64,000 nucleotides of DNA from Acidobacteriota bacterium (GTDB taxonomy: Bacteria > Acidobacteriota > Vicinamibacteria > Vicinamibacterales > JAKQTR01), in assembly GCA_040752275.1 (NCBI GenBank), contig JBFMFH010000056.1, forward strand, positions 13,015 to 77,014, in the 5' to 3' direction. Shown piece by piece: positions 1-62,599 of this stretch. Under the pieces are notes generated by a model, which worked only from the letters and a program-made list of their open reading frames with translations, did no database searches and was not told where the DNA came from. Position 1 is the first letter of the stretch; each line of letters starts with the position of its first letter. A program made the translations under genes and the position numbers.

Positions 1-2336
1 TCTACGGCCTGATGTTCCGGCCAACGACCTTCGATCCGTCCCGCAAGTACCCGATCGTCAACCAGATCTACCCCGGCCCGCAGTCGGGCAGCACCCGGGG
101 CTGGACCTTCGCCGCCGCGCGTGGAGATGCCCAGGCTCTCGCCGAACTGGGCTTCATCGTCGTCACGATCGACGGCACGGGAACGCCGGGCCGGTCGAAG
201 TCGTTCCACGACGCGTACTACGGGGCGATGGGCCGCGACAACACCATCCCGGACCAGATCGCCGGGATGAAGGACCTGGCCTCGAGATTCCCGTGGATCG
301 ACCTGGATCGCGTGGGGATCTGGGGGCACTCGGGAGGCGGGTTCGCCACGACGAGCGCGATGTTCCGCTTTCCCGACTTCTTCAAGGTCGGCATCGCCGA
401 GTCAGGCAACCACGACCAGCGGCTGTATGAGGACGACTGGGGCGAGCGGTACCAGGGGCTGCTCGTCAAGGGCGCGGACGGCAAGGACAGCTACGACATC
501 GAGGCGAACCAGAACGTCGCGAAGAACCTGAAGGGGCACCTGCTGCTCGCCCACGGGACGATGGACACCAACGTACCGCCTGAGAACACCCTGGCGGTGG
601 TGGATGCGCTCATCAAGGCGAACAAGGATTTCGACCTGCTGATGATCCCGAACGCGGGGCACGGATACGGCGGCGCATCGAACTACGTGATGCGGCGACG
701 GTGGGACTACTTCGTCAAGTGGCTGCTGGGGGTGGATCCGCCGAAGGGGTACGAGATCGGGAGCACCCGACCGCCTTCGGCGCCACGCGAGCCGACGCGG
801 GCCGACATCCTGCGCGGAGCCTGGGGGAAGCACCGGGCCAACAACGATCTGCTGTCGTACCATCTCGACGTCCGCGTCGACCCCGAGAAGAAGCACATCA
901 GCGGCACGAACACGATCCGGTTCCGCATGCTGAGCGACGACACCCGCATCCAGCTCGATCTGTCGGAGGCCCTCAAGGTCGACAGGATTCTCCTCGGTGC
1001 GCAGGAGTTGAAGTACGAGCGCGAGCTGGGTGCCCTGTTCGTCGACTTCCCCGAGACGCTTCGCCGGGGGCGGACCTACGCCATCGACGTCCGCTACTCG
1101 GGCAACCCGGCCGAGACGGGGCGTTTCGGCGGGATCGCCTTTCGGAAGGACCCGGCGGGACGGCACTGGATCAACACCGCGTGCCAGGGGACGGGCGCCA
1201 GCATCTGGTGGCCGAACAAGGACCAGCAGCGCGACGAAGTCGAGAACATGCGGCTGAGCGTGTCGATCCCCAATGACCTCGTCGACGTGTCGAACGGGAA
1301 GTTCCTCGGCAAGACGGATCTCGGCGACGGCTACACGCGCTGGGAGTGGCAGATCCAATACCCGATCAACAACTACAGCGTGTCGCTGAACATCGGCCAT
1401 TACACGCACTTCACCGGCACGGCCGGGGATATGACGCTCGACTTCTACGTGCTGCCCGAAAGCCTCGAGAAGGCGAGAGCCCAGTTCGCCCAGGTCGCGC
1501 CGATGATCGCCAGCTTCGAGAAGCACTTCGGCGAGTACCCCTTCAAGAAGGACGGCTACAAGCTCATCGAAGTGCCGTACTCGGGGATGGAGCACCAGAG
1601 CGCGGTCACCTACGGCAACCGCTTCGCAAACGGCTACCTCGAGCGAGACTGGACCGGCGTGGGCGTCAGCACGAAGTTCGATTTCATCATCGTCCACGAG
1701 AGCGCCCACGAGTGGTTCGGCAACGCCATCACGGCCGCCGACGTAGCCGACATGTGGATTCACGAGGGCTGGGGCACCTACCTGGAGGCCATCTACGTCG
1801 AGGATCAGTTCGGGTACGACGACGCCCTCAAGTACGTCAACGGATACAAGTCGAAGGTCCGGAACCGTGAGCCCATCGTGACCGAGCCTGGCATCAACCG
1901 CACGCCGTCGCAGGATCAGTACTTCAAGGGGGCGCTCTTCCTCCACACCCTGCGTCACGTGATCGACGATGACGCGCGCTGGTGGGCACTGCTCCGCGAG
2001 TTCTACCAGGAGTTCAAGTACCGGAACATCGGGACCGACGATGTGGTGGCGTTCTTCAACCGGAAGACCAGGCGGAACCTGACGCCGATCTTCGACCAGT
2101 ACCTGCGGCGCGCGAGCCTTCCGACACTCGACCTCCAGTTCCAGGATAGCGGGCAGGTGGCCTACCGGTGGAGTGCCGACGTGAAGGGGTTTGCCATGCC
2201 CGTCAAGGTCGGTCGCCCGGGCCAGTGGCAGGTCTTGCGCCCTACGACGGACTGGCAGGTGATGACGACCTCGATTGCGAGAGACGATTTCGAGGTTGGG
2301 ACGGATTGGTACTACATCAATGTCAGCAGGCACTAG
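1..2336 (+). CDS. Fused peptidase: S9 (DPP-IV/prolyl oligopeptidase-type) serine hydrolase C-terminal domain joined in frame to an M1 (aminopeptidase N-type) zinc peptidase; 5' end lies outside the window
   Basis: The frame is open to the window edge (sense codons precede the ATG at 12). The S9 triad appears in order: GIWGHSGGG, GTMDTNV, NAGHGY. Downstream are GMEHQS (GxMEN-like) and HESAHEWFGN...WIHEGWGTY (HExxH-x18-E). Confidence 0.85.
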   Translation, partial: YGLMFRPTTFDPSRKYPIVNQIYPGPQSGSTRGWTFAAARGDAQALAELGFIVVTIDGTGTPGRSKSFHDAYYGAMGRDNTIPDQIAGMKDLASRFPWIDLDRVGIWGHSGGGFATTSAMFRFPDFFKVGIAESGNHDQRLYEDDWGERYQGLLVKGADGKDSYDIEANQNVAKNLKGHLLLAHGTMDTNVPPENTLAVVDALIKANKDFDLLMIPNAGHGYGGASNYVMRRRWDYFVKWLLGVDPPKGYEIGSTRPPSAPREPTRADILRGAWGKHRANNDLLSYHLDVRVDPEKKHISGTNTIRFRMLSDDTRIQLDLSEALKVDRILLGAQELKYERELGALFVDFPETLRRGRTYAIDVRYSGNPAETGRFGGIAFRKDPAGRHWINTACQGTGASIWWPNKDQQRDEVENMRLSVSIPNDLVDVSNGKFLGKTDLGDGYTRWEWQIQYPINNYSVSLNIGHYTHFTGTAGDMTLDFYVLPESLEKARAQFAQVAPMIASFEKHFGEYPFKKDGYKLIEVPYSGMEHQSAVTYGNRFANGYLERDWTGVGVSTKFDFIIVHESAHEWFGNAITAADVADMWIHEGWGTYLEAIYVEDQFGYDDALKYVNGYKSKVRNREPIVTEPGINRTPSQDQYFKGALFLHTLRHVIDDDARWWALLREFYQEFKYRNIGTDDVVAFFNRKTRRNLTPIFDQYLRRASLPTLDLQFQDSGQVAYRWSADVKGFAMPVKVGRPGQWQVLRPTTDWQVMTTSIARDDFEVGTDWYYINVSRH

Positions 2337-2398
2337 ACAGGCGACAGGCGACAGGCGACGGGCGACAGGGTAGGGGTCAGGCGACAGGAGGCAGGAGG
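2336..2398 (+). repeat. Heptanucleotide tandem array (GACAGGC-type) starting at the last base of the TAG stop
   Basis: Read directly: gacaggc gacaggc gacaggc gacgggc gacaggg, then degenerate gacagga ggcagga units. Confidence 0.9.
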
Positions 2399-2423
2399 CG
2401 TTCCGCACTCCGCAATCGGATCG

Positions 2424-3071
2424 TCAGCCGGATCGCGGGCCTCGGGCGACGGCGGCGGCATAGTGTCGCAGTTCGCGCATGCCGGCCAGCTGGAGCTTGT
2501 TGATCAACCGGTTGGCGTAGGTCTCGACGGTGCGTGCGCTCACATCCAGCCGCGAGGCCATCTCGGCCAGGCTGTAGCCGGCGCTGAGGTACTGCAGCAC
2601 CTGGTCTTCCCGGCGGCTGAGTTGGACTCTCGTGCCCATGCGAACCAGCGGCTCGGTCTCGTCGGTGAGCGTGTCGTCGGCAAGAGGACTCAAGTACGGC
2701 CTCCCGCGAAGGACGGAGCGCAGAGCCTCCAGCAGCGTGTCACCGGCTTCGGCCTTGGTGACATAGCCTGAGGCCCCGGCCGTCAGCGCCTGCTCGACGT
2801 GCAGGTGGTCGTCGTGCATCGAACAGACGACGGCGGGAATGCCCTTCTCGCGCAGAGGCTCCATCAACGTGAGTCCGGACTCGCAGGCCAGTGCCAGGTC
2901 GAGCAGCGCGACGTCGGCCCCGCGATTGTTGATGAGCGACAGCGCGTCGCGTGTCGTGCCGGCCTCGCCCGACACGGCGAACCCGTTGCCTTCGAGCAGC
3001 ATGCGAACGCCCTGACGAAAGACCGGGTGGTCATCCACCAGCAGCACTTCGGTCCGAGCCCGCTCAGGCAT
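2424..3071 (-). CDS. NarL/FixJ-family response regulator (REC + LuxR-type HTH)
   Basis: VLLVDDHPVFRQG receiver start, a phospho-acceptor context (DVALLDLAL), and a C-terminal LSRREDQVLQYLSAGYSLAEMASRLDVSARTVETY HTH. It overlaps the upstream kinase stop by 8 nt. Confidence 0.9.
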   Translation of the reverse strand: MPERARTEVLLVDDHPVFRQGVRMLLEGNGFAVSGEAGTTRDALSLINNRGADVALLDLALACESGLTLMEPLREKGIPAVVCSMHDDHLHVEQALTAGASGYVTKAEAGDTLLEALRSVLRGRPYLSPLADDTLTDETEPLVRMGTRVQLSRREDQVLQYLSAGYSLAEMASRLDVSARTVETYANRLINKLQLAGMRELRHYAAAVARGPRSG

Positions 3072-4389: not shown

Positions 4390-4713
4390 CTCATCGGGAA
4401 CCGTGCCGACTGGTGAACATCAACAAGCTCCGCCCGACCTACAGAATCTGTAGATGGCGCACGGATTGTCAGTGGCCTATGCAAGCGGAATGCTCAGGCT
4501 TCGCGCCGTGCCTGGAATGAGACAACCTGCCCAAACACCAGACAATCGTGCACGGGAGTCCACGCCAGTTCGTGAGGAGCCTCCGCTGGCGTGTAGGATG
4601 TCCAGTCCCGAGACAACACAACCTGGGGGTACGAAAACGAGACACGGTGACTCGTGCGTGGACACGGCCTGTACGTATCCGGGACCGGGACCCATCCGCA
4701 TTCCGCACATGCC

Positions 4714-4788
4714 GGGATTCGGGATTCGGGATTCGGGATTCGGGAACGCGTCGCGCTGGCCGCGCGACCTCGACCTTTCGATTCGCAG
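4714..4788 (+). repeat. Copy A of a 75-bp intergenic element: (GGGATTC)x4 followed by a conserved core with a GTCGCGC-N5-GCGCGAC hairpin
   Basis: Near-identical to 6616-6690 by direct comparison. The hairpin stem is 4750-4756 / 4762-4768. Confidence 0.9.
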
Positions 4789-4794: not shown

Positions 4795-5409
4795 CTACTG
4801 GATTCTCGCGCCGATATCGTCGCCACCGAGGCTGGCGGTGCCGACCGGTTGTCTGTACGGTGTGTCAATCGTGCCGTTCGGGCCGGCCGACAACACCCAG
4901 ACGGCGGCAGGCTGTTCGTGGGGTGGGGAAGGGGAGGCAGGGCCAAGCAATCCGACGTTGACGAGATACCGGTGGCCCCACGGGTCAGGCCCCGGGTCGA
5001 AGTCGATGTACTGGTCGAACCGCTGGTCTGCCTGCTGAGTCGGCTTGGTGGGGCGGTTGACGAGGTACTCGGTCAGGGTGCTCACGTGGCCCGTGGACCA
5101 CTCGGTCCGGCGAGCCTCGATCGGCCGATCGCCTTGGCTGACGAGGAGATCGAACGGAAAGCGCCGGGCCGAGGTGCCCCAACTGCCGGGCCCGGCCGCC
5201 GTCGCGTCCCAGTCGCGGTAGAAGCGGGCGACCGCCGCGCCAATCGTATAGCAGGTCCGCTCCGCTCGAATCTCACGAGACGCGGTGAAGAAGGCCGAGA
5301 TGGAGGGCATCATGACCAGCCCGACGGTGGTGGCAGCCGCGAGCAGGACGGCAAGATCGAGAGGGGAGAAGGATGCGCGATGTCTGGCGATGAGCGGGCG
5401 GGCAAACAT
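4795..5409 (-). CDS. GspG-like pseudopilin paralog with a degenerate prepilin leader
   Basis: N-terminal hydrophobic helix (SFSPLDLAVLLAAATTVGLVMMPS). It shares the DPWGHRYLVN motif and the C-terminal GGDD with the neighbouring pseudopilin. Confidence 0.6.
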   Translation of the reverse strand: MFARPLIARHRASFSPLDLAVLLAAATTVGLVMMPSISAFFTASREIRAERTCYTIGAAVARFYRDWDATAAGPGSWGTSARRFPFDLLVSQGDRPIEARRTEWSTGHVSTLTEYLVNRPTKPTQQADQRFDQYIDFDPGPDPWGHRYLVNVGLLGPASPSPPHEQPAAVWVLSAGPNGTIDTPYRQPVGTASLGGDDIGARIQ

Positions 5410-5506: not shown

Positions 5507-6256
5507 CTACCGCGAGCCGCCGGAGATCACCGTCACGAAGTCGTCGCCACCACGCTGTGTGCCGCCGCCGCTCCCGGCAAACGGCGTCTCAATCGTCTGG
5601 TCCTCGCCAGCCGACAGACAGATGGTGTCATAGTGCCAGCCGTAATCCGGACAACCCTGGTCGCCCGAGCAGTTGGCATCGTTGGCCACCCTCAGGAAGA
5701 GGGTGTTCACCAGATAGGTGCTTCCCCACGGATCGGGCCCGATCGGCGGTGCCAAGTAAGCTCCGCGCCAGCCGGTGGTGAAGAGGGGCAGGGGGTTCTG
5801 GGCGAAACCCAGCGCGCCAGGCGTCTTGTACGCGGGATCGTTCCGCACGAGCTGGCTCTCGAGCGTGTCGAACGCGGCGCAGGGCGCCGCATCGAAGGGA
5901 TCATCCCAGTTGTAGGTCGCGCACTCCGCGGTGCTCCCTGCTGGGGTGAAGTTCGGGGCATCGACTAGGTCGATGCTCGGTTCGTTTCCGTCGCTGTACA
6001 GGATCCCCGCGATGTTCAAGATCTCGCAGTCAACCGGCACCGCAGAGCCGTTCTGCGCAACGCAGTTCGTGTCCCTGAACAGGCGCGCGATCGACACGGC
6101 GATCGCCTCGCAGTCTTCCTTCACCTTGACGCGCTGCGCGTCCTTGATGAAGTCGAAGATGGAGGGCACCAGGACGCTGGTGAGGAGCATCAGCACGAGC
6201 AGCATGATGGTGACCTCGATCAGCGACAGGCCCTTCTGTCCGTTGAGCTTTCTCAT
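5507..6256 (-). CDS. Type II secretion/type IV pilin-like pseudopilin (GspG-like)
   Basis: MRKLNGQKGLSLIEVTIMLLVLMLL is a class III signal (G|LSLIE) followed by a hydrophobic helix. It also has the DPWGSTYLVN motif. GGAGG lies 7 nt upstream of the ATG at 6256, so the longer track ORF (to 6469) was trimmed. Confidence 0.75.
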   Translation of the reverse strand: MRKLNGQKGLSLIEVTIMLLVLMLLTSVLVPSIFDFIKDAQRVKVKEDCEAIAVSIARLFRDTNCVAQNGSAVPVDCEILNIAGILYSDGNEPSIDLVDAPNFTPAGSTAECATYNWDDPFDAAPCAAFDTLESQLVRNDPAYKTPGALGFAQNPLPLFTTGWRGAYLAPPIGPDPWGSTYLVNTLFLRVANDANCSGDQGCPDYGWHYDTICLSAGEDQTIETPFAGSGGGTQRGGDDFVTVISGGSR

Positions 6257-6615
6257 TGAGCGACCTCCGTGGCTGCAAACGTCTGTTGACGAAACCCGAA
6301 GCCTCGGCCGATTCGTCGCAGCACCGCACGGGAGGGAGCCCGGACGTACACGAAAAGAGGGACTGTGACCGGCCACCGAGTCACAGTCCCCCGATTCCTG
6401 TGTCCCCGTTGTCGTGTGACGCCTTCGGGGAAGGCTCGTCGGCGCGTTAGCTAGACGCGCCCGAGTCACACAAGCACAGCCGACTGGGTCGGTCGGCGCG
6501 CTCCCGCGCGGTTGACCCGCTGCTTGCCACTCAATATGCGCCGGTGGGGATCGCTATGCTGTCCGGAGTCTCCCGGACAAGGGGAGAAATCACGGCTGGC
6601 AATCCCCAGGGACCC

Positions 6616-6690
6616 GGGATTCGGGATTCGGGATTGGGGATTCGGGAACGCGTCGCGCTGGTCGCGCGACCTCAGCCGTTCGATTCGCAG
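6616..6690 (+). repeat. Copy B of the 75-bp element (GGGATTC array + conserved hairpin core)
   Basis: gggattc gggattc gggattg gggattc, then gggaacgcgtcgcgctggtcgcgcgacc...ttcgattcgcag. The hairpin is 6652-6658 / 6664-6670. Confidence 0.9.
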
Positions 6691-6779
6691 GTGCGGCGCG
6701 TACGTGCAGCACTCCGCATCCCGCACTCCGGTCCCCGGGTCTCGGAACCCAGGATTGCGGAACGGCCGTAGAGCGGCCC

Positions 6780-6807
6780 GAATCCCGAATCCCGAACCCC
6801 GAATCCC
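6780..6807 (+). repeat. Inverted heptamer array (GAATCCC)x4, the reverse complement of the 6616-6643 array
   Basis: gaatccc gaatccc gaacccc gaatccc. Together with 6616-6643 it forms 28-nt terminal inverted repeats around about 136 bp. Confidence 0.85.
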
Positions 6808-6893
6808 GGGTGCGGGTTCCTCCCCCTGTATTCCGTGCCATAATCCGTCGGGGGGCGGCGTGTGCCCGTGCCCTGAGAAGGAGAGCGGCAGAG

Positions 6894-7634: not shown

Positions 7635-8720
7635 TCACCGCGTGATGCGGATCCGGATTCCGGCCAGCGTCGAGTTGACGGCCTCGTCGATGGTGCCCTC
7701 GCCGCCTTCGGCTGAGGTGCCCTTGATGGGCATCCGCACGAACTCCCCGTAGATGGCGACCCTCGGCGACACCCAGACCTCGGCGCCGCCGCCGGCAAAC
7801 CACCGCCACCCCGTCACCCTCAACCCGAACGACTGCGTGCCGCCCACAATCGTCTGTTCGACATCATCGACCGTGACGGTGTAGTCGTCGATCGTCTGGT
7901 TGGTTGTCGACGTGGCCCGCGAATACGTGGCGCCGCCCTTGCCATACACCCGGACCCGGCCCATGGGTACGCCGATCTTGCCGGCGGCCGCCACGATCTG
8001 CGTGTCGAACGTGTTGTCGAACCGGTTACTCTCTCCAGCGCTCCGGGAGACAACGTCTGCGGGCTTCACGTAGCTGACCTCGGCCCCGAGGAAGGGCTTG
8101 AACCAGACGTCGATGCCCGCGGTCGGGGCCAGGCGGCTGCGCGAGCCGGTGCACTCGGGCTCGTTGCCGCACGCGACGAAGACCTGATTGCTGAAGAGCG
8201 ACAGGCCCCCGCCGCCGAAGGCGATGAGGCCCACCGGCAACGGTCCCCACTCGCGGGACGGACCGCCCTGTGCGGCGTCCGGATCCAGCCAGGCCTCCGG
8301 TGCCGGGCCCTGCCTGAACCGGACGGACGGCAGCGGGTCGGATACATCGACGACGAACGAGGTGACCTCGCGCAGGACATACACGCCGGCAATCTCCCGC
8401 CTGGTGCACTCGCCGGGCCCGGCCGGTCCCACGACCCCGGGCTCGATGAGGAGCACGCGCCGGAGACCCTCGCAGGCATCGACGAAGATGGTGGCGTCAA
8501 TCTCGGTTCTGCCTCGCTGGGCGGAGAGATCGAAGGTGAGCGTGGCGACGCCCCTGGCGTTCGCCGTCGTGGAGCCCACCTGGGCCGTGTTGAGCACGAG
8601 CTCGACGCGTGCCCCCGGCGGGGCCTTGATGACGCTGACGGACTGCGCCATCGCCACGCCGCTTGCTCCCGCGACGTTGAGTGCGGCCACGATCGCCAAC
8701 AGCCGCCAGAATCCCTTCAT
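7635..8720 (-). CDS. Outer-membrane protein with a C-terminal OmpA-like beta-barrel
   Basis: Signal peptide MKGFWRLLAIVAALNVAGASGVAMAQ. The C-terminal half has alternating beta-strand patterning. GGAGG lies upstream of the ATG at 8720, so the track ORF start at 8876 was trimmed. Confidence 0.7.
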   Translation of the reverse strand: MKGFWRLLAIVAALNVAGASGVAMAQSVSVIKAPPGARVELVLNTAQVGSTTANARGVATLTFDLSAQRGRTEIDATIFVDACEGLRRVLLIEPGVVGPAGPGECTRREIAGVYVLREVTSFVVDVSDPLPSVRFRQGPAPEAWLDPDAAQGGPSREWGPLPVGLIAFGGGGLSLFSNQVFVACGNEPECTGSRSRLAPTAGIDVWFKPFLGAEVSYVKPADVVSRSAGESNRFDNTFDTQIVAAAGKIGVPMGRVRVYGKGGATYSRATSTTNQTIDDYTVTVDDVEQTIVGGTQSFGLRVTGWRWFAGGGAEVWVSPRVAIYGEFVRMPIKGTSAEGGEGTIDEAVNSTLAGIRIRITR

Positions 8721-28514: not shown

Positions 28515-28518
28515 AGCA

Positions 28519-53146: not shown

Positions 53147-53188
53147 ACGCGACGCGAACCGCGTTGGACCCCTGATCGTATACTCCAT

Positions 53189-54127: not shown

Positions 54128-54130
54128 GCC

Positions 54131-54970
54131 GTGCCCATCCACGACCAGAGCTACCGCCGGTACCGGGGAGCGCGGGCGCCGCAGGGGCGCTCCTGGACGG
54201 TCATCGCGCTTGCCGGGATCAAGCTCATGCTGGCCAAGAAGAAGTTCCTGGCGCTGCTCGTGCTGGCCTGGGTGCCCTTCGTGGTCAGGGCCGTGCAGTT
54301 CTACGTCGCCGCGAACTTCCCCCAGGCGTCGATGATCGCCCCTGGGCCGTCGACCTTCGACGACTTCCTGGAACAGCAGGGCGTGTTCGTGTTCTTCGTC
54401 ACAATCTTCACCGGGGCGGGCCTCATCGCCAACGACATGCGCGCCAATGCCCTCCAGATCTACCTGTCGAAGCCGCTCGGGCGGGCCGAGTACATCGCGG
54501 GGAAGTTCGCCGTCCTGGCCTTCTTCCTGCTGCTCGTGACCTGGCTGCCGGCGACGATGCTGGTGTTCGTGCAGGTGATCTTCGCGGGCAACGTCTCGTT
54601 CCTGACAGCGCATTCCTACCTGCTGCCGGCCATCCTCGTCGTCACGAGCATCCAGACTATCGTGCTCGGGTTCATCATGCTGGCGCTGTCGTCGCTCTCG
54701 AAGAGCTCGCGGTTCGTCGGCATCATGTACGCGGGGATCTTCTTCTTCATGGACGCCCTCTACGGTGTCGTGTTCGTGGTGACGAGGGACACGAGCTTCT
54801 CGTGGATGTCGCCCAGGGCCAACCTGACGCAGCTCGCCGATTTGATCTTCCGGCTGGAGCCGATCTACAAGACCTCAGGCTTCGTGACGGTCGTGGCCCT
54901 GGGGGCGGCCCTCGGGCTGGCGATGCTGGTGCTCGAGAGGCGCGTGCGCGGCGTGGAGGTCGTCACGTGA
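54131..54970 (+). CDS. ABC-2-type permease, cassette 1
   Basis: MPIHDQSYRRYRG N-terminus followed by 6 hydrophobic helices. It starts 3 nt after the ATPase stop. Confidence 0.75.
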   Translation: MPIHDQSYRRYRGARAPQGRSWTVIALAGIKLMLAKKKFLALLVLAWVPFVVRAVQFYVAANFPQASMIAPGPSTFDDFLEQQGVFVFFVTIFTGAGLIANDMRANALQIYLSKPLGRAEYIAGKFAVLAFFLLLVTWLPATMLVFVQVIFAGNVSFLTAHSYLLPAILVVTSIQTIVLGFIMLALSSLSKSSRFVGIMYAGIFFFMDALYGVVFVVTRDTSFSWMSPRANLTQLADLIFRLEPIYKTSGFVTVVALGAALGLAMLVLERRVRGVEVVT

Positions 54971-55911
54971 CCGGCGCCTCGCCCGCGCCCCCGGCACCCA
55001 TCGTCGTGACCGACCACGTGTCGAAGTGGTACGGCCAGGTCATCGGCCTCAACGACGTGAGCGTCACGATTCCCCGCGGCATCACCGGCCTGCTGGGACC
55101 GAACGGTGCGGGTAAGTCGACTCTGATGAAGCTGCTGACCGGCCAGCTCAAGCCGAGCAAGGGGACGATCTCGGTGCTGGGTGAAGCGGTGTGGGGCAAC
55201 CCGCACCTGTACTTCAGGATGGGGTTCTGTCCCGAGCAGGACGCGTTCTACGACCGCATGACCGGCCTCGAGTGGGTGACGGGCCTGGTGCGCCTCAACG
55301 GGCTCGGGGAGGCTCGGGCCATCGAGGCGGCGAGAGCAGCCCTGGCGCAGGTGGACTTGAGTGAGGCGGCCGACAAGAAGATCGGCGGCTACAGCAAAGG
55401 CATGCGCCAGCGCGTGAAGCTCGCGCAGGCTCTCGTGCACGACCCGGAGCTCCTGATCCTCGATGAGCCCTTGTCCGGGATGGATCCGATCGGCCGCCGC
55501 CGCACGATCCGCCTCATCAAGGACTGGGCCCGGGCCGGGAAGAGCCTCATCGTCTCGAGTCACATCCTGTATGAGATCGAGGCCATGACCTCGAACATCC
55601 TGCTCATCAACAATGGACGGATCCTGGCCGAGGGCGACGTCCACCAGATCCGGGAACTCATCGACGAGCACCCGCATACCGTGTACGTGCGCGCCGACGA
55701 GCCGCGGACGCTCGCCCGCGAGTTCCTCACACGTGACGACGTGCTGAGCCTTCGGCTCGAGCAGGATGCCATCGTCATCGAGACGTCGAAGCCCGACAGC
55801 TTCTACCGGTATCTGACGGACCTCGCGGCGTCGGGGCAGGCCGGCACGATCAGCGAAGTCACCTCGCCGGACGACAACCTGCAGGCCGTCTTCAAGTTCC
55901 TCGTCAAATGA
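54967..55911 (+). CDS. ABC transporter ATP-binding protein (ABC-2 type), cassette 2
   Basis: A GTG start forming a GTGA overlap. Walker A GPNGAGKST, signature YSKGMRQR, Walker B LLILDEPLSGMD. Confidence 0.88.
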   Translation: MTGASPAPPAPIVVTDHVSKWYGQVIGLNDVSVTIPRGITGLLGPNGAGKSTLMKLLTGQLKPSKGTISVLGEAVWGNPHLYFRMGFCPEQDAFYDRMTGLEWVTGLVRLNGLGEARAIEAARAALAQVDLSEAADKKIGGYSKGMRQRVKLAQALVHDPELLILDEPLSGMDPIGRRRTIRLIKDWARAGKSLIVSSHILYEIEAMTSNILLINNGRILAEGDVHQIRELIDEHPHTVYVRADEPRTLAREFLTRDDVLSLRLEQDAIVIETSKPDSFYRYLTDLAASGQAGTISEVTSPDDNLQAVFKFLVK

Positions 55912-56804
55912 CCGTGACCTCATCGAATCCGATTGTGCCGCCCGCCGGCCAGAGCGTGCCGACTTCCGGCGGCGTGCCCAGGGAAGCGCCTCCCTTCCTC
56001 ACCGCGGCGCTCCGCATCTTCGACCTGTCACTCGGCCAGATGTTGTGGTCGCGCCGGACCATCTTCCTGGCGCTGGTGGTGGGATCGCCGCTGGCCCTCG
56101 GGGTCCTGTTCCGAGTCCTCGAGGCGATGGGGGTTGGCGACATGCGCGTCGGGCGGAGCCCCGTGGCCGGTCCCACCGTGTTCGGTGGCATGATCTGGCT
56201 CCTGTACCTGCGGTTTATCGTACCCGTGCTCGGCGTGTTCTACGGCACGGCCCTCGTGGCCGACGAAGTCGAGGACAAGACCATCACCTACCTGTTCGTC
56301 CGGCCCGTCCCTCGCGCGGCGGTGCTGGCCGGCAAGTATCTGGCCTACCTGGTGACCACCATCTGCGTGGTGCTGCCGTCGGTCGTGCTGTTGTACCTGC
56401 TGGTCGTCCCGCTCGGGAGCGGTTCGCTGGCCGCGGCCTTTCCGGACCTGCTGAAGGACTTGGCGCTCCTGGGGATTGGGCTGGCGGCGTACGGCGCCAT
56501 CTTCGCGTTCATCGGTGCCCAGTTCAAGCACCCGCTGGTGACCGGGCTGGTCTTCGCCTTCGGATGGGAGCAGCTGGCGCTGATTCTGCCCGGATACCTC
56601 AGGCGGGCGACAGTGGCCTATTACCTGCAGGCCCTGGTGCCGCACACCATGCCCGCGCAGGGGCTCGGCACCGCGCTGCAGGCGATCTTCCGGGACACGC
56701 CGTCTACGCTGGTCAGCCTGGCGTGGCTAGCGATCTACATCGCCGGGTTCGTGTATGTGGCCGGTCGGGTGATCGAGCGGCGGGAATACGTGCTGGAACA
56801 GTAG
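55908..56804 (+). CDS. ABC-2-type permease, cassette 2
   Basis: ATGA overlap with the ATPase gene, six hydrophobic helices, and the EVEDKTITYLFVRP motif. Confidence 0.75.
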   Translation: MTVTSSNPIVPPAGQSVPTSGGVPREAPPFLTAALRIFDLSLGQMLWSRRTIFLALVVGSPLALGVLFRVLEAMGVGDMRVGRSPVAGPTVFGGMIWLLYLRFIVPVLGVFYGTALVADEVEDKTITYLFVRPVPRAAVLAGKYLAYLVTTICVVLPSVVLLYLLVVPLGSGSLAAAFPDLLKDLALLGIGLAAYGAIFAFIGAQFKHPLVTGLVFAFGWEQLALILPGYLRRATVAYYLQALVPHTMPAQGLGTALQAIFRDTPSTLVSLAWLAIYIAGFVYVAGRVIERREYVLEQ

Positions 56805-56971
56805 GACAGGGGAAGGGGACCCAACTTCGCCGGGCGCGCTGACGCGCGGCTTCGTCGAGGCGAGCCGGGGACCATTGGAGAATCAGCGTTCTAATTGTGA
56901 ACGTCGTACGCCTCGCCGACCAGGGAACTTCCGAGGGGCCCCACCGTATAGCGGATCAGAGGGACGTGACG

Positions 56972-57988
56972 ATGACCGCAAAGACACGCTATTTCCTTAT
57001 CGGTTCGGCGCTGGTGCTCGTGCTCGGCCTGGGCATCGGTGTGGTGGCCTACTACGGAGGCGTCTCGGGTGGCCTGTTCGCCCAGGGGCCCGGGCCCAAG
57101 GAGTTGAAGTACGTCCCTGAGGACGCGGCGGTGGTGGCCTATGCCGATGTCAGGCAGGTCATGACCTCCGAGTTGCGGCAGCACCTCCGGCAGCTCGATG
57201 GCGTCACTGACGAGGGGCGGAGCGAGTTCCGCGACCAGACCGGGATCGACATCGAGCACGACATCGACTACGTTGTGGCCTCGATGCGCGGCGCGGAGAT
57301 CTCGGACCACGCGGACGGCCTCGTGATCGCCCGCGGCCGCTTTGACCAGGGGCGCCTCGAGGCGCTTGCCGTGGAGCACGGCGGGAAGGTCACGGAGTAC
57401 CGCGGGAAGCGGATGGTGATGGCGCCTGTCGACCGCCACCGGGAACGCGCGGCGGCCGAGGCTCCCGAGTTTGCCCTGGCGTTTGTCGAGCCTGGCCTGA
57501 TGGCGATGGGCAGCCTGCCGGCCGTGCAGCAGGCCCTCGAGACCGGGGCGGCAGGCCGGAACGTGACGGACAACGCCGAGATGATGAAGTTCGTCGCCGA
57601 GATGCAGTCCGAGAGCATGTGGGCCGTGGGCCGCTTCGATGCAGTCAGGGCAGAGGCGAGGCTGCCGGCAGAGGTCGAGAACCGGATCCCGCCCATCACC
57701 TGGTTCGCCGCCAGCGGTCGCGTGAACGGCGGCGTGCAGGCCACGGTCAAGGTCGATGCCCGTGACGAGCAGGCGGCCGACAGCCTGCGGGACATCGTTC
57801 GGGGGTTCGTCGCCCTGGCCAAGATGCAGGCTGGGGACAAGACCGAGGCGGCGGCCCTGCTGCCTGCCATCGAGCTCGGCGGGACGGGCAAGACGGTCTC
57901 GGTGTCCTTCGCGGTCTCGACCGCACTGCTGGATGCCGTGTCGAAAGGCGGCGCCATGAAGCGGGAGGCAGCGCCCAAGAAGGAATAG
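56972..57988 (+). CDS. Membrane-anchored periplasmic protein of unknown function
   Basis: N-terminal anchor MTAKTRYFLIGSALVLVLGLGIGVVAYYGG and no catalytic motif recognised. It immediately follows the doubled ABC-2 cassette. Confidence 0.55.
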   Translation: MTAKTRYFLIGSALVLVLGLGIGVVAYYGGVSGGLFAQGPGPKELKYVPEDAAVVAYADVRQVMTSELRQHLRQLDGVTDEGRSEFRDQTGIDIEHDIDYVVASMRGAEISDHADGLVIARGRFDQGRLEALAVEHGGKVTEYRGKRMVMAPVDRHRERAAAEAPEFALAFVEPGLMAMGSLPAVQQALETGAAGRNVTDNAEMMKFVAEMQSESMWAVGRFDAVRAEARLPAEVENRIPPITWFAASGRVNGGVQATVKVDARDEQAADSLRDIVRGFVALAKMQAGDKTEAAALLPAIELGGTGKTVSVSFAVSTALLDAVSKGGAMKREAAPKKE

Positions 57989-58154
57989 CCCCCTGTGACG
58001 CGTGTGACCGCTTTTGCTTGACGGATCCCGGTCGGTTTCCCTACACTGGCGCTCATTCCTGACCTTCTTCCGCGCCACCTTCCGTCCCCGGTGTGGTCGG
58101 CAAGGGGAGGTGACGGACATTCCGGCGGCGGGGCCGCCCGGAGGCGGGCGTCGC

Positions 58155-58559
58155 GTGAACAACAGGGTCTTCTTCTACGGCACTCTGATGGCGGGCTTCG
58201 ACCGCCGCCGGCGCGCGGGCATCGACACGCGCATGCGGTTCATGGGGCGGGGCTGGATCCAGGGTGCGCTGTTCGATCTGGGGCTGTACCCGGCGGCCAT
58301 CCCGGCACCTGAGGGACAGGTCTGGGGAGAAGTGTACGAGATCGACGACGAGTCGGTACTCGAGGCGCTCGACGACATCGAGGGCTACCGCGCGAGCGAG
58401 CCGGACACCAGCCTCTACAACCGGGTCCAGACCGACGCGACCTTGGCCAACGGGGATCGACACCCGGTGTGGGTGTACTTCTACAACGCCCCGCTGGGAC
58501 GTGCCGAGCGGATCGACTCGGGCGACTACCTGGCGTACCTGAACGTCAGTCGCGGATAG
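58155..58559 (+). CDS. Gamma-glutamylcyclotransferase (GGCT/AIG2-like) family protein
   Basis: VFFYGTLM...GALFDLGLYPAA......VWGEVYEI....L..LD.IEGY. The GTG start at 58155 is uncertain. Confidence 0.75.
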   Translation: MNNRVFFYGTLMAGFDRRRRAGIDTRMRFMGRGWIQGALFDLGLYPAAIPAPEGQVWGEVYEIDDESVLEALDDIEGYRASEPDTSLYNRVQTDATLANGDRHPVWVYFYNAPLGRAERIDSGDYLAYLNVSRG

Positions 58560-58573
58560 CGACGAGACGACAC

Positions 58574-58909
58574 CTACCCCGCCTCCTGCCGCCCCAGGAC
58601 GAACGCGACGATTGACGCCTTGACGCGCTCCGGCAGGTCCACGAACTCGAGCCCCGCCCGGTAGATGACGGAGTCCCGCCCGAGGTCGGCGATCTGGCAG
58701 TGGACGACACGGGCCTTGACGACGACCACGTCGTCGTCGAGATGCAGGCGTAGGTCGTGCAGCGAATTCACCAGCAGCGGGAATGCCGATTCCAGTCTGA
58801 CGCCCGCCGGGCCGATCTCGCGGATGGCGACGGGCGCCATCACGCTCAGTTCGCCCGCGAGCTTCTCGAGCAGATCCACCCGGGTCGCCGTCCGCCGGTC
58901 CTGGCTCAT
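58574..58909 (-). CDS. Stand-alone PilZ-domain protein
   Basis: RRTATR (RxxxR) near the N-terminus, EIGPAGV in the position of D/NxSxxG, a beta-barrel-like remainder, and a length of 111 aa. Confidence 0.7.
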   Translation of the reverse strand: MSQDRRTATRVDLLEKLAGELSVMAPVAIREIGPAGVRLESAFPLLVNSLHDLRLHLDDDVVVVKARVVHCQIADLGRDSVIYRAGLEFVDLPERVKASIVAFVLGRQEAG

Positions 58910-58967
58910 CCCGCGCGGACTATAGCATATGATGGAGGTTCACCCTGACAACCCGGGCAGGACGTGT

Positions 58968-60470
58968 ATGACCACGAACACATCGAGCGTTCAGACCGCT
59001 CACAACTTCATCGATGGCGAGTGGGTGGCCGCCGCCTCGGGCGAGACCTTCGAGAACCGCAATCCGGCCGACTGCACTGATCTAGTCGGACGCTTTGCGA
59101 GGTCCTCGCGTGCCGACGCCGCGCGCGCCATCGACGCCGCGCGCCGGGCGTTCGACGCCTGGCGGCTCGTGCCGGCGCCGAAGCGCGCGGAGATTCTGTA
59201 CCGCGCCGCCCAGCTGCTGGCCGAGCGCAAGGAGCGCTACGCCCGCGACATGACCCGCGAGATGGGCAAGGTCCTCGACGAGACGCGGGGCGACGTCCAG
59301 GAGGCCATCGACATGGCCTTCTTCATGGCGGGTGAGGGTCGCCGGCAGCATGGGCAGACCGCGCCGTCCGAACTGCGCGACAAGTTCGCCATGTCGATCC
59401 GTCAGCCCATCGGAGTCTGCGGCATCATCACGCCGTGGAACTTCCCGATGGCCATCCCGTCGTGGAAGATCCTGCCGGCGCTCATCTGCGGCAACACGGT
59501 CGTGCTGAAGCCGGCCACGCTGACGCCGCTCTCGGCCGTGAACTTCGTCAGCGTCCTCGAGGAGGCCGGCGTCCCGCCCGGGGTCGTCAACCTCGTGACT
59601 GGTGGCGGGGGAGAGGTCGGCAACGCGATCCTCGAGTCGTCGGACGTCGATGTCGTGTCCTTTACGGGCTCGACCGACGTCGGCCGCACGGTGAGCGTCA
59701 AGGCCGCGCCCAGCTTCAAGAAGGTCCACCTCGAGATGGGCGGCAAGAACATCATCATCGTCATGGACGATGCGGATCTCGAATTGGCGGTCGACGGCTG
59801 CGTGTGGGGAGGCTTTGGGACGACCGGGCAACGCTGCACGGCCGCGAGCCGCATCGCGGTGCAGCGCAGGGTCTATCGGGCGTTCGTCGACCGGTACGTG
59901 GAGCGCGTCAAGGCGCTCAAGGTCGGGAACGGTCTCGACCCGGCCACGCAGATGGGGCCGTCGGTCAGCCAGGCCCAGCTCGAGACCGTGATGAGCTACG
60001 TCGAGATCGGGAAGGGCGAGGGCGCGACGCTCGCGTGCGGTGGACACCGCATCGACACAGGAGCTCATGCGGACGGCTACTTCCACGAGCCGACGGTGTT
60101 TGTCGACGTGCATCACCGGATGCGCATTGCCCAGGAAGAGATCTTCGGCCCCGTGGTGTCGGTGATACCGTTCGAGTCGTTCGACGAGGCGATTGCGGTC
60201 GGGAACAGCGTCGAGTACGGCCTGTCGTCGTCGATCTACACACGGAACATCAACCTGGCGTTCCTCGCCATGCGGGATTTGCACACGGGCCTGTTCTATG
60301 TGAACGCCCCCACCATCGGCGCCGAGATCCACCTGCCATTCGGCGGCACCAAGAACACGGGCAACGGCCACCGCGAGGCCGGCGAAGCCGCGTTGGACGT
60401 GTTCTCGGAGTGGAAGTCGATCTACGTCGACTTCAGCGGGAAACTCCAGCGGGCGCAGATCGACCAATAG
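58968..60470 (+). CDS. NAD(P)-dependent aldehyde dehydrogenase
   Basis: FIDGEWV, ITPWNFP, VSFTGST.VG, LEMGGKN, catalytic GQRCTA, EEIFGPV. Confidence 0.9.
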
Positions 60471-60845
60471 ACACCTTACGGAGGGCGACAGGGCCGGGAT
60501 CGGGCGTCAGGCGATCCCCCCTGATCGACCCGGAGTGTCCCGGAGCAAACCATGTGAGCACGGCGACAGCGGCCTTGGCGCGCCGAAGCCGGAATGGCGG
60601 AGGCGGAAGTCTGCAAGACGCGCCGAAGAACAAGGGGCCCAGCCGGCGTTTCGTCCGCGGAGCGGCGGCCGGCGTCCAGCGGCCCGTAGCGGGCCGAAGG
60701 CGTGTCTTGCCGCCGTGTCGAACGGTTTGCGGAGGGGCACTCCGGGTCGACTGTCTGGTGTCGCGTCCCGGCGCCTTGTCGGTCCCCGCTGTCTTCCGGT
60801 ATCGTGTGGCCGATACGCCACGTTCGTCCAACAACGGAGAGCTCC

Positions 60846-62510
60846 ATGCTGAATGCTGCGCTGGTCGGGGTGTTGGGTGCCATCTGGTTCGTCCTCGCGT
60901 ATCGCTGGTATGGCGGGTTCATTGCCAGGCGCCTCATCCAGCCCGACGATGGCCGTGCGACGCCGGCGCACGCCCAGCGGGACAACGTCGACTTCGTCCC
61001 GGCGAATCGCGCGATCCTTTTCGGGCACCACTTCTCCTCGATCGCAGGCGCCGGGCCGATCGTGGGGCCGATGCTGGCCTACTCGCTGTTCGGCTGGCTG
61101 CCGGCGCTCGTCTGGATCTTCGCCGGATCCGTGTTCATCGGCGCGGTGCACGACTACACGGCCATGATGGCATCGGTACGTAGCCGCGGCGTGTCGGTCG
61201 CGGACATTGCCAAGGTGCACGTGTCGGCGACGGCCCGCTGGATCTTCAGTGTGTTCCTCTGGCTGGCTCTGGTGCTGGTGATCGCGGTCTTTGCCGTCCT
61301 GACCGCGCAAACGCTCGCCGAGAAGCCGGAGATCGTCGTTCCGACGCTGGGCCTGATGCTGCTGGCGATGCTCTTCGGCACGCTCGTCTACCGCGGTGGC
61401 GTCAACCTGTGGGTGGGCACGGCGGTGGCGCTGGTCGTGATGGTCGCGCTCATCGTCGCCGGCGACCACTACCCGATTCCGGCCAGCTATGAGTTCTGGC
61501 TGGTGTTCGCCCTCGTGTACTCGTTCGTCGCCGCGACGCTGCCCGTCTGGTTTCTGCTGCAGCCGCGCGACTACCTCTCGATGTACATCCTCGTCGCAGG
61601 GCTCGCCCTCGGATTCGTGTCGTTGCTCATCATGCGGCCGGCGATCACCGGACCCGCCTTCATCGGCGTGTCGAGCAGCTCCGGGCCGCTCTGGCCCATC
61701 CTGTTCATCACGGTGGCGTGTGGGGCGGTGTCGGGCTTCCACTCGGTGGTGTCGAGCGGCACCTCCGCCAAACAGCTGGCTCGAGAGAGCGATGCGCGGC
61801 TCGTCGCGTTTGGCGGCATGCTCACCGAGGGCGCCCTCGCCATGCTCGTCGTGCTCTTGATGTCGGCGGTGCTGTTCTGGGACCGGGCACCGTCCGAAGG
61901 GCTGTCGGATTTCGTGTTCCGGTCGGTGCTGGCCGAGAAGGGCGCGAACATCACGTTCGGCCGGGCGATGGGCCGGGCGATCGAAAGCATCGGCATCCCG
62001 CTGAACTACGGTATCGCCTTCGGCGTGCTGATGCTCAATGCCTTCATCCTGACCACCCTGGATACCTGCACGCGGCTCACCCGGTTCATCGTGGTCGAGA
62101 GCGCGGGGCAGAAAGTGGGCATCCTGCGCAACCGGTTCGTTGCCACCGCTGTCGGCCTCGTGGCGGCCTACTTCTTGACGTTGGGCAACGGCTGGCGTGT
62201 GCTGTGGCCGGCCTTCGGGGCGGCGAACCAGTTGATTGCCGCGCTGTCGCTGCTCGTCGTGTCGGCCTACCTGTTCGGCTACGGCAAGAGGACCGTCTAC
62301 ACCATCGTGCCCGGCATCTTCATGCTGGCGACCACCGAAGGCGCCCTCTTCTACCAGCTCTTCTGGCAGTATCTGCCGGCGAAGAACGTCCCCCTGGCTA
62401 TCGTCGCCACCGTGCTCATGGCGCTGGGTCTGGTTGTCGCGGCGGAAGTCTACCGGCGGCTGCAGCGGACCGATGTCGGGGTGCCGGCGATTGGGGAGCC
62501 GGTACGGTAG
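60846..62510 (+). CDS. cstA: Carbon starvation protein A (peptide/pyruvate transporter family)
   Basis: YRWYGGFIARRL, LFGHHFSSIAGAGPIVGP, CGAVSGFHSVVSSGTSAKQ. Confidence 0.9.
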   Translation: MLNAALVGVLGAIWFVLAYRWYGGFIARRLIQPDDGRATPAHAQRDNVDFVPANRAILFGHHFSSIAGAGPIVGPMLAYSLFGWLPALVWIFAGSVFIGAVHDYTAMMASVRSRGVSVADIAKVHVSATARWIFSVFLWLALVLVIAVFAVLTAQTLAEKPEIVVPTLGLMLLAMLFGTLVYRGGVNLWVGTAVALVVMVALIVAGDHYPIPASYEFWLVFALVYSFVAATLPVWFLLQPRDYLSMYILVAGLALGFVSLLIMRPAITGPAFIGVSSSSGPLWPILFITVACGAVSGFHSVVSSGTSAKQLARESDARLVAFGGMLTEGALAMLVVLLMSAVLFWDRAPSEGLSDFVFRSVLAEKGANITFGRAMGRAIESIGIPLNYGIAFGVLMLNAFILTTLDTCTRLTRFIVVESAGQKVGILRNRFVATAVGLVAAYFLTLGNGWRVLWPAFGAANQLIAALSLLVVSAYLFGYGKRTVYTIVPGIFMLATTEGALFYQLFWQYLPAKNVPLAIVATVLMALGLVVAAEVYRRLQRTDVGVPAIGEPVR

Positions 62511-62514
62511 GGGG

Positions 62515-62599
62515 GAGACAGGGGCAAGAAGACAGAAGACAGGAGACAGAAGACAGAAGACAGAACGCAGAAGATGTTGAGTCGCGCTCAACGCGCGAC
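62515..62599 (+). repeat. Heptamer array ((A/G)AGACAG x8) followed by a GTCGCGC-N5-GCGCGAC hairpin, just after the cstA stop
   Basis: gagacag gggcaag aagacag aagacag gagacag aagacag aagacag aacgcag. The hairpin is 62581-62587 / 62593-62599. Confidence 0.88.

Follow-up and report, generated by a model that had tools for sequence, protein, structure and literature searches.

Twelve tandem arrays with a strict 7-nucleotide (nt) period were identified in a 64,000-nt stretch of the metagenome-assembled genome of a soil Acidobacteriota bacterium of the order Vicinamibacterales (contig JBFMFH010000056.1, positions 13,015 to 77,014; hereafter termed the window). These heptamer arrays are exclusively of period 7, are confined to intergenic DNA, obey a rule that relates their composition to the sense strand of the adjacent genes, form inverted pairs with hairpin potential, turn over rapidly and in concert, and are dispensable in close relatives. 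We interpret them, with moderate confidence, as representatives in Vicinamibacterales of the class of heptameric simple sequence repeats (SSRs) to which the short tandemly repeated repetitive (STRR) sequences of cyanobacteria, the GGGAATC arrays of Xanthomonas, and the TAACTGA arrays of Beggiatoa belong; on this interpretation, they are born by slippage and filtered by strand-specific selection on transcripts.

The arrays in the window were located using Tandem Repeats Finder (TRF) and by direct reading of the sequence. Every period-7 array listed in a preliminary description of the window, prepared from the letters alone, was recovered at its place and is strictly of period 7. Perfect arrays of at least three copies number six at period 7; the remaining periods between 5 and 15 have zero, as do 50 dinucleotide-preserving shuffles of the window. 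Intergenic DNA accounts for 7.8% of the window, and 11 of the 12 arrays lie wholly inside this fraction, of which they make up about 8%. The preliminary description was right in treating the arrays as non-coding and concentrated at gene ends.

Strand composition, inverted pairing, and turnover in related loci

Exact-sequence look-ups of two proteins of the window returned no record, but homologs of its MtnA protein assign the window to Acidobacteriota, the closest named relatives among species-representative genomes being Vicinamibacterales (77–78% identity). A census of arrays was performed on a sample of 164 non-redundant MtnA loci totaling 2.28 Mb (individual loci carry L numbers below). 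This sample contains 163 arrays of at least three copies with period 7, compared with 22 with period 9, 18 with period 8, 12 with period 12, and 5 with period 6. Array loci reach a density of dozens per 100 kb, with a patchy spread: they occur in many loci of Terriglobia/Acidobacteriaceae, Pyrinomonadaceae, and Blastocatellia and in some of Vicinamibacterales, but in none of the Bryobacterales/Solibacteraceae loci of the sample, and nine non-acidobacterial loci yielded one weak array. The units are highly diverse, with 190 distinct canonical units in 338 arrays, 266 of which have units without GGG or CCC. The copy number has its mode at approximately four, alike for units with a run of three G residues (G3) and for other units, although the TRF score threshold under-counts arrays of two to three copies, so that this mode may be partly an effect of detection. 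Individual units nevertheless recur within a genome, as seen for ATCCCCG (six sites) and ACCGGGG (four) in L001 and for ACGCCCC (three) in L002.

The relationship between composition and strand was derived from arrays in co-directional spacers, with gene calls backed by protein homology across loci; a rule based on open reading frame (ORF) length and on GC content at third codon positions (GC3) miscalled known co-directional spacers. Arrays located at most 20 nt after a stop codon are G+T-rich on the sense strand (42 vs. 12, p = 5e-5), and those located at most 25 nt before a start codon are A+C-rich on the sense strand (40 vs. 11, p = 6e-5), the median distance across loci being 4 nt for the former and 8.5 nt for the latter. 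The preliminary description had placed the arrays at or just after stop codons, which captures half of this pattern; the other half consists of A/C-rich complementary arrays just upstream of starts. For mtnA alone, an array ends at most 25 nt before the ATG in 32 of 161 loci, and these arrays, built from 26 different units, are A+C-rich in 29 cases against 2, with a mean T content of 0.13 and a mean G content of 0.20. For Terriglobia (L025–L054, around positions 9900–10000), the 30–40 nt preceding the mtnA ATG are themselves heptamer arrays (AACGACC, CCAACGA, AACTGAC, ACTGAGA) that reach within 2–7 nt of the ATG (median 5.5 nt), without a Shine-Dalgarno (SD) sequence.

Neighboring arrays are frequently inverted copies of each other. 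Among 90 adjacent array pairs at most 200 nt apart, the units are reverse-complementary (at most one mismatch) in 45 and direct in 4, and the arm richer in G+T comes first in 36 of the inverted pairs against 9 (p = 7e-5); co-directional spacers hold 33 of the 34 classifiable pairs. The window itself contains an inverted pair at 6615–6647/6777–6808 (35 nt, 94% complementary) and an imperfect one at 47098/47130. The earlier argument that the arrays are mostly single-orientation and hence not hairpin terminators holds only in part for orientation in the window, which has the inverted pair, and fails in general, given that half of the pairs in relatives are inverted, whereas its conclusion that they are not classical terminators stands because no U-tract follows them. 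When predicted folding was compared with that of shuffled sequences, region 6600–6825 of the window gave −133 kcal/mol (z = −7.2), and L001 gave z = −3.5 for 8483–8585 and z = −4.3 for 15285–15390, whereas the array-free orthologous spacers of L005 remained near 0. Particularly long inverted pairs were observed in the Blastocatellia locus L064 (3199–3531 and 8473–8789), namely GGGATTG ×6 versus CCAATCC ×33 and CAGAAGG ×11 versus TTCTGCC ×24.

Syntenic relatives of the window, namely L001 (89% identity), L002–L004 (83%), L005–L007 (82%), L168 (91%), and L169 (89%), allowed orthologous spacers to be compared. L001 and L002 have the same spacers densely filled with period-7 arrays, built from other units (GGGACCG, CCGATCC, GGGGCGT, CAGTAGG, CCCACGT, ACAGGGA), and the orthologous spacers of the window, L001, L002, L168, and L169 contain unlike units and copy numbers. 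One case is the mtnA spacer, in which the 24-nt flank before the ATG, GTCGAGTATCATTGATCCCCTATG, is identical in the window and L168 while the arrays differ completely (GATTGCG ×4 and CCCGAAT ×4.6 in the window; GGGGATT ×4, a long loop, and GGTCCCC ×5 in L168); array turnover is therefore far more rapid than that of the flanks, with concerted change within each array. L005–L007 contain no arrays despite carrying the same genes with spacers of similar length, and none was found in many other Vicinamibacterales loci of the sample; L009 and L015 are array-free relatives as well.

Arrays and gene context in the window

The arrays of the window and their associated segments are listed in Table 1.

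Table 1. Heptamer arrays and associated segments in the window (positions from the first letter of the stretch; strand given where assigned).
Positions	Strand	Unit and copy number	Remarks
2336–2399	+	GACAGGC ×7.9 (2336–2388), then CAGGAGG ×2.1 (to 2399)	TRF, direct reading, Pfam; sense strand G-rich
2400–2423	−	Degenerate heptamers	Minus strand reads CGATCCGATTGCGGAGTGCGGAAC; direct reading, weak
4713–4745	−	GAATCCC ×4.7 on sense strand (TRF: CGGGATT ×4.7)	Opposite, G-rich strand has a canonical G-quadruplex motif
4746–4788		Flank, 43 nt, with hairpin GTCGCGC-N5-GCGCGAC	Copied along with the array (family D5)
6615–6647	−	CGGGATT ×4.7	Left arm of inverted pair; C-rich on sense strand of minus-strand gene 5507–6469
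6777–6808	+	CCCGAAT ×4.6	Right arm of inverted pair; TRF, folding, repeat comparison
25684–25722		GCGGAAT ×2, then CTCCTGA ×2.9	In convergent spacer 25671–25737
30320–30352 (TRF 30320–30351)	+	CAGGCGA ×4.6	Translated as tail of ABC-transporter ORF
47098–47127	+	GATTGCG ×4.3	G/T-rich arm; TRF
47130–47161	+	CCCGAAT ×4.6	A/C-rich arm; TRF; only 2 nt from GATTGCG array
49332–49363	+	CGAATCC ×4.6	TRF; fills the 52-nt tsaD–yjbQ spacer
52498–52521	+	GACAGGG/ACCGGGG/ACCCGGG, approximately 3 imperfect units	TRF, direct reading
52542–52562	+	Degenerate C-rich heptamers CCCCGTT CACCCCC AACCCCC	Direct reading, weak
56805–56818	+	GACAGGG GAAGGGG, 2 units	Direct reading
62515–62574 (TRF AGAAGAC ×6.9 at 62527–62574)	+	AGAAGAC/AGACAGG ×6.9	Purine-rich; convergent spacer

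Genes in the window were mapped by GC content at codon positions and by Pfam. The preliminary description had stated that most arrays begin 0–16 nt after a stop codon, and this applies to 8 of the 12, the other 4 being start- or promoter-proximal. On the stop side, array 2336 begins on the final G of the TAG of an S9/M1 peptidase gene (12–2336) and occupies most of a convergent spacer, within which 2400–2423, read on the minus strand, directly follows the TGA of a response-regulator gene (2424–3071), so that the spacer reads G-rich and then C-rich on both strands. Arrays 52498 (after gltS) and 56805 (after an ABC-2 permease gene) lie 0 nt from TAG, array 62515 lies 4 nt after the TAG of cstA, array 49332 lies 10 nt after the TGA of tsaD, array 25684 lies 13 nt after a stop, and array 47098 lies 16 nt after the TAG of cdd. 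The array at 30320–30352 adjoins the stop of a convergent minus-strand gene (30353–31333) and at the same time forms the last 11 codons (…SGDRRQATGDRATS*) of an ABC-transporter ORF (28420–30363). Instead of terminating where expected (…LYQLQY), this ORF continues through a hairpin (30290–30313) and the heptamer array for approximately 30 extra residues and overlaps the convergent gene, which encodes a DUF4097 protein, by 11 nt.

On the start side, arrays 49332 and 47130–47161 end 10 nt before the ATG of yjbQ (49374) and 20 nt before that of mtnA, respectively, and the degenerate run at 52542–52562 is situated just upstream of the SD and ATG (52577) of an HD-domain gene. An FKBP lipoprotein gene with its ATG at 6894 is preceded, at a distance of 85 nt, by array 6777–6808, which ends shortly before a −10-like CATAAT box and an SD; the divergent spacer that holds this array also holds its inverted partner at 6615–6647. 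Array 4713–4745 lies in a 400-nt spacer between two minus-strand genes, 49 nt past the stop of ORF 4795–5409 and 324 nt upstream of a histidine-kinase start, with a C-rich sense strand. The start-side arrays closest to genes in the window stop 10–20 nt short of the ATG, leaving SD-like or −10-like motifs in place.

Relative to the nearest gene, stop-side arrays of the window are G-rich on the sense strand (GACAGGC, GATTGCG, GACAGGG) and start-side arrays C-rich (GAATCCC). Two units recur: GAATCCC at five sites and GACAGG after six stops. The latter follows the stop on the sense strand in every case, and the former is upstream of a start on the sense strand at all five sites, at a distance of 10–20 nt at two (47130 and 49332) and of 85, 145, and 324 nt at the others. 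The genes adjoining the arrays are housekeeping genes (cdd, mtnA, tsaD, yjbQ, gltS, ABC transporters, cstA). TAG stops were considered as a possible part of the phenomenon and rejected, as TAG is merely common in the window (25 of 54 stops, 16 of these 25 being followed by G). The stop codons of the called genes comprise 25 TAG, 27 TGA, and 2 TAA (n = 54), an unusual distribution for a genome of 67% GC.

Several segments appear to be worn or copied arrays. The imperfect runs at 52498–52521 and 56805–56818 are read here as probable degenerate arrays, because L001 carries full arrays at both places (CGGGGAT ×3.9 in the gltS spacer; GGGACCG ×3.9 and CGATCCC ×7.3 in the ABC-2 permease spacer); L001 also has GGTCCCC ×3 at the place of the degenerate run upstream of the HD-domain gene. 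The autocorrelation of intergenic sequence at lags 7, 14, and 21 is consistent with a heptamer origin extending beyond the arrays reported by TRF. The loop between the inverted GGGATTC arms (6690–6776) consists of degenerate period-7 units (CACTCCG CATCCCG CACTCCG GTCCCCG), and remnants of the CGCATTC/GCGGAAT type adjoin arrays at 2400–2423 and 4690–4712; because of these degenerate units in the loop and in the array flanks, heptamer-derived intergenic DNA exceeds the TRF report. A 77-nt module composed of a GGGATTC array and its 43-nt flank is duplicated 1.9 kb apart (4712–4788 and 6614–6690, 94% identity), and each copy precedes a transcription unit on the minus strand, in one case a LuxR-type two-component operon. 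No copy of the flank (4746–4788, family D5) was found among 87 related loci, and its interpretation as a mobile or small RNA (sRNA) module was consequently rejected in favor of local duplication. A transposable origin of the arrays in general, of the kind known for repetitive extragenic palindromic (REP) sequences or miniature inverted-repeat transposable elements, was likewise rejected, as units and loops differ at every site and the sole common flank is that of the local duplication. An Rfam scan of the window gave no match at array sites, the sole hit being the transfer-messenger RNA (tmRNA).

Other features were observed near array-bearing spacers. In four lineages (window 47164–47181, L001 9982–10000, L168 159–176, L169 720–737), a conserved AGTATCAT box precedes the mtnA ATG by exactly 9 nt and looks like a −10 element, which would give a leaderless mRNA or one with a very short leader. 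TATAAT-like boxes also precede other starts, such as CGTATAAT in L002 and CGTATATT in L005 upstream of a DUF3352 gene, both with a GGAACTT motif approximately 17–21 nt further upstream. A textbook intrinsic terminator with a 12-bp GC stem and a CTTTTCTTTT tail is encoded on the minus strand at 62636–62663, downstream of an outer-membrane beta-barrel gene; the organism therefore uses classical terminators alongside the arrays. Elsewhere, the tmRNA gene is located at 15336–15691 on the minus strand (Rfam, 161 bits). Next to its 3′-end lies a stretch of lower GC3 (10257–15300) that contains an AbiEii-type toxin gene (10731–11648) and a 65-nt direct repeat with 98% identity (15085–15149 and 15202–15266), and the arrangement looks like a genomic island integrated at ssrA.

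Known heptamer repeats and candidate explanations

Heptanucleotide STRR families were reportedly described in heterocystous cyanobacteria by Mazel and colleagues in 1990. The analogy with these sequences drawn in the preliminary description is apt, since STRRs and the present arrays both comprise several heptamer families per genome, arranged in tandem and dispersed in non-coding DNA; however, STRRs are defined by their cyanobacterial hosts and consensus units, whereas the host of the window is acidobacterial and its units differ. The Nostoc heptamer GGGGATT/CCCCAAT was observed only in the relatives L064 and L002 (9952–9980 in the latter). An STRR report on Calothrix PCC7601 is cited by Rehm et al. 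(2015; PMC4692102), who, as quoted there, also attribute to Mrazek (2007) the over-representation of heptamers in many bacteria and a polymerase-slippage hypothesis.

The closest parallel is provided by Xanthomonas, for which Rehm et al. (2015; PMC4692102) report approximately 185 GGGAATC arrays per genome, in addition to 89 arrays of GGGGA(C/T)T in Nostoc; the preliminary description had erred in knowing of no equivalent in a GC-rich diderm. According to the same study, 89–93% of the Xanthomonas arrays and 68% of those in Nostoc are intergenic, four units are favored, and Xanthomonas genomes contain 70–75 inverted pairs. In the first 50 bp after a stop the G-rich strand is the sense strand, and in the last 50 bp before an ORF it is the antisense strand; the stop codon itself is overlapped by some arrays, and the upstream ORF, at 28 nt, is much nearer to the arrays than the downstream one, at 160 nt. 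Sister species carry arrays of different length and sequence in the same spacers; no link to surface genes and no function were found (PMC4692102). A 2022 preprint on the Nostoc heptamer arrays describes modest reporter effects. The acidobacterial arrays agree with those of Xanthomonas and Nostoc in their strict tandem 7-nt units, intergenic bias, stop/start strand rule, approximately four units, inverted pairs, housekeeping neighbors, and change of length and sequence between sister species, and Xanthomonas is likewise a GC-rich diderm. They differ in phylum, in their main unit in the window (GGGATTC rather than GGGAATC), in mixing several unrelated units, most of them unable to form a G-quadruplex, and in that most units across the phylum are not G-rich. 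One tract of three to four G residues per unit, as in Xanthomonas and Nostoc, is displayed by the five GGGATTC arrays and not by GACAGGC, CAGGCGA, GATTGCG, CTCCTGA, or AGAAGAC.

A third precedent is formed by TAACTGA arrays (2–6 copies), located a few nucleotides upstream of start codons in marine Beggiatoaceae, some cyanobacteria, and Bacteroidetes, in spacers with few SD sites and before genes that share no functional theme (MacGregor, 2015; PMC4679880). The NAACTGA- and AACGAC-type arrays that end 2–7 nt before the mtnA ATG in Terriglobia are alike, and 14 NAACTGA dimers were counted in related loci, but TAACTGA has zero occurrences in the window, where the start-proximal unit is GAATCCC. 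Furthermore, Beggiatoa has one dominant unit and almost no indirect repeats, whereas many units and common inverted pairs are found here. No description of heptamer arrays in Acidobacteria was found in the collection of literature that was searched.

Two further repeat types share single features with the arrays. REP sequences and bacterial interspersed mosaic elements (BIMEs) of enterobacteria are abundant, genome-specific intergenic elements located after stops, often as inverted pairs whose hairpins affect mRNA stability; REPs are single imperfect palindromes of approximately 35 nt that are spread by RAYT transposases. Position after stops and inverted pairing are common to both, but the present arrays are tandem heptamers, and neither a RAYT gene nor a REP-like consensus was seen. 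The contingency SSRs of Haemophilus and Neisseria have units of 1–5 nt (sometimes 7) and reside in ORFs or promoter spacers of surface or restriction-modification genes; they too are tandem, slippage-prone repeats, whereas the arrays described here occur outside ORFs, beside housekeeping genes, and at very high density.

Under the reading we favor, a replication or repair process of the lineage would slip in a 7-nt register and thus create, expand, and homogenize arrays, and template switching across hairpins could place a reverse-complementary copy of an array at the opposite end of the spacer. Within an ORF, a unit of 7 nt would shift the reading frame, which restricts arrays to intergenic DNA; they would be purged from ORFs, persist only where harmless, and spread within a spacer until checked by the stop codon at one end and by the SD, −10 box, or start codon at the other. 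A filter on orientation would then act at the transcript level. The start-side arm, which is statistically A/C-rich and G/T-poor on the sense strand, may be retained because such a leader has little self-pairing and few start-codon- or SD-like sites and could serve as a structure-free leader or ribosome standby region, while its G/T-rich complement would adjoin the upstream stop. Where both arms are present, a long, register-tolerant hairpin would span the distance from the stop codon to the next ribosome-binding region, and such a hairpin could stabilize or delimit the upstream transcript or tie downstream initiation to ribosomes reaching the stop. Any function of the arrays is modulatory and not essential, because close relatives have the same genes and similar spacer lengths without arrays.

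Several observations weigh against this interpretation. Simple independent slippage leaves unexplained the presence of one unit at unrelated spacers (GAATCCC at five sites, GACAGG after six stops, and ATCCCCG at six sites of L001), which may point to a factor acting in trans, to some mechanism of dispersal, or to selection for particular sequences. Slippage was unobserved: L002, L003, and L004, which represent one locus from multiple samples, are 100% identical over their whole length and hence uninformative in this respect, and a metagenome scan for same-species strains that might display copy-number polymorphism returned nothing closer than 80% identity. The spacer at 47082–47181 folds no better than shuffles (z = −0.7), and the stop-proximal and start-proximal units of the window are mostly non-complementary, which limits the hairpin model to some sites. 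In addition, the order of G+T-rich and then A+C-rich arms is strand-symmetric, so that an intrinsic mechanism at the DNA level could yield it instead of selection on transcripts; gene calls supported by homology leave only 7 convergent and 13 divergent arrays, some of them miscalled, which is too few to separate chirality from an association with start codons. Finally, the counts across loci are not phylogenetically independent.

Given the recurrence of units, the arrays might be multivalent platforms for a genome-specific trans-acting factor (S1, Csp, a CsrA-like RNA-binding protein, a DNA-binding protein, or an sRNA) that engages one heptamer per subunit and acts on termination, stability, or initiation. 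A unit recurs at unrelated spacers of one genome and differs between related genomes; window units are position-specific (GACAGG always after stops, GAATCCC upstream of starts), and many G-rich units contain ACA..GGA-like motifs on direct reading. S1, Csp, or CsrA have been suggested as binders of the TAACTGA arrays (PMC4679880). We nonetheless judge this explanation rather unlikely: 338 arrays comprise 190 distinct units, with several unrelated ones per genome; units change at the same spacer between relatives of 89–91% identity in which the flanking motifs are fixed; and close relatives with the same genes lack arrays, no candidate factor having been identified. Protein landing pads and elements of untranslated regions, both named in the preliminary description, are possible roles of the arrays.

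The working idea of Rehm et al. assigns to such arrays the role of G-quadruplex (G4) or i-motif regulatory elements, in which at least four G3 tracts fold next to genes and modulate transcription or translation. In vitro, DNA of the sequence (GGGAATC)3GGG folds into a G4, and arrays of four units are reported to be favored (PMC4692102). All five GGGATTC arrays of the window (4.6–4.7 units) carry 4–5 G3 tracts with 4-nt loops; of the 10 canonical G4 motifs that the window contains, they provide 5. However, three of the five are not independent, being members of the duplicated module or an inverted partner, and the G-rich strand of every one is antisense to the adjacent downstream gene, so that no RNA G4 would form. 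As only these five window arrays can form a G4, and the seven others (GACAGGC, CAGGCGA, GATTGCG, CTCCTGA, AGAAGAC, and the short runs) contain no such motif, G4 formation is not a general explanation, and we consider it unlikely as the basis of the arrays. The abundance of acidobacterial units without GGG or CCC, whose copy-number mode is still approximately four, points in the same direction; the notion that a mode of four copies reflects selection for G4s was rejected, because non-G units share this mode and the TRF threshold suppresses arrays of two to three copies.

Stop-proximal arrays, alone or paired, could also act as transcription terminators or stabilizers of 3′-ends, in the form of hairpins or of R-loop or G-rich pause elements. 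Their distance from stops (0–16 nt in the window; median of 4 nt across loci), the 13–35-bp stems of paired arrays with z values down to −7, and the proximity of Xanthomonas and Nostoc arrays to the upstream ORF (28 vs. 160 nt; PMC4692102) would fit this role. Direct reading of the flanks, however, revealed no U-tract (T-run) after any of the 12 arrays, and for this reason the arrays are not classical terminators; a consensus scan of 44000–63000, which covers 6 of the 12, reports no array, and a classical terminator is used elsewhere in the genome (62636–62663). Many arrays reside in apparent operons with spacers of 50–100 nt (tsaD–yjbQ, cdd–mtnA), where termination would be counter-productive, half are start-proximal, some of these in divergent spacers, and most of those in the window have no complementary partner. 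A general role in termination or 3′-end stabilization is accordingly regarded as distinctly unlikely.

More far-reaching, and in our estimation improbable, is the proposal that an undiscovered process specific to the lineage, whether RNA-templated or slippage-prone extension of 3′-ends at breaks or a factor that seeds one unit across loci and homogenizes it, writes genome-specific heptamers as inverted pairs of fixed chirality (G/T-rich, then A/C-rich), which cells would use as stop-to-start hairpins with a structure-free A/C leader that gates or couples translation of the next gene. If this were true, a single mechanism, and not passive slippage, would have produced the arrays of Acidobacteriota, cyanobacteria, Xanthomonas, and Beggiatoa.

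A related possibility is that the arrays are scars of enzymatic 3′-end extension, in which a telomerase-like enzyme or slippage-prone polymerase extends both ends of a break with the same G/T-rich heptamer before they are rejoined as an array and its complement. One step would then account for the inverted pairs (45 of 90), the strand-symmetric order (36 vs. 9), and the genome-specific units, and the composition of GGGATTC, GGGGATT, and GGGGATC is telomere-like. Nevertheless, we hold this to be very improbable: the idea is purely inferential, the window showed neither a candidate enzyme nor a template, many arrays have no partner, some units next to stops, such as GACAGGC, are not G+T-rich, and selection on leaders in co-directional spacers, to which nearly all classifiable pairs belong, would give the same chirality.

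The view of the arrays as phase-variable contingency tracts, whose copy-number slippage toggles the expression of adjacent genes, was raised in the preliminary description and is highly improbable. Tandem SSRs are inherently prone to slippage, and copy number differs between species at the same spacer. The neighbors, however, are housekeeping genes, as opposed to genes with surface or restriction-modification functions, and a period of 7 is not divisible by 3, for which reasons such a role is unlikely; moreover, the arrays lie outside ORFs, mostly downstream of stops, at dozens of loci per 100 kb, and Rehm et al. (2015; PMC4692102) reached the same verdict for Xanthomonas.

Chance or assembly artifact can practically be dismissed: assemblers do struggle with such repeats, as contigs L004 and L168 begin (position 1) inside heptamer arrays, but shuffles contain none, three independent assemblies of the L002–L004 locus give identical arrays, and assemblies from NCBI, JGI, ENA, and Logan show arrays at orthologous sites. 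A scan of viral contigs for (GGGATTC)4 gave 5 hits in 2.9 million contigs and was uninformative.

Implications for heptameric repeats

The arrays described here extend a known class of repeats to a new lineage, the large and little-studied phylum Acidobacteriota, and do not represent a new kind of element. At the practical level, they break short-read assemblies and are therefore probably under-represented in metagenome-assembled genomes, and they extend or overlap ORF calls, as in the tail of the ABC transporter and at the 3′-end of L001 tsaD, which runs through an array (12112–12140).

The over-representation of heptamers has been noted since 1990, for STRRs, and since 2007, in the work of Mrazek as quoted by later authors. 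The acidobacterial arrays place four constraints on any explanation. Units can be of almost any sequence, so that G4 formation is not the general answer; neighboring arrays are often reverse complements of each other, with a fixed order of G/T-rich and then A/C-rich arms; a few nucleotides at most separate arrays from stop codons and ribosome-binding regions; and array turnover is far more rapid than that of the flanks, yet a single unit occupies many spacers of a genome.

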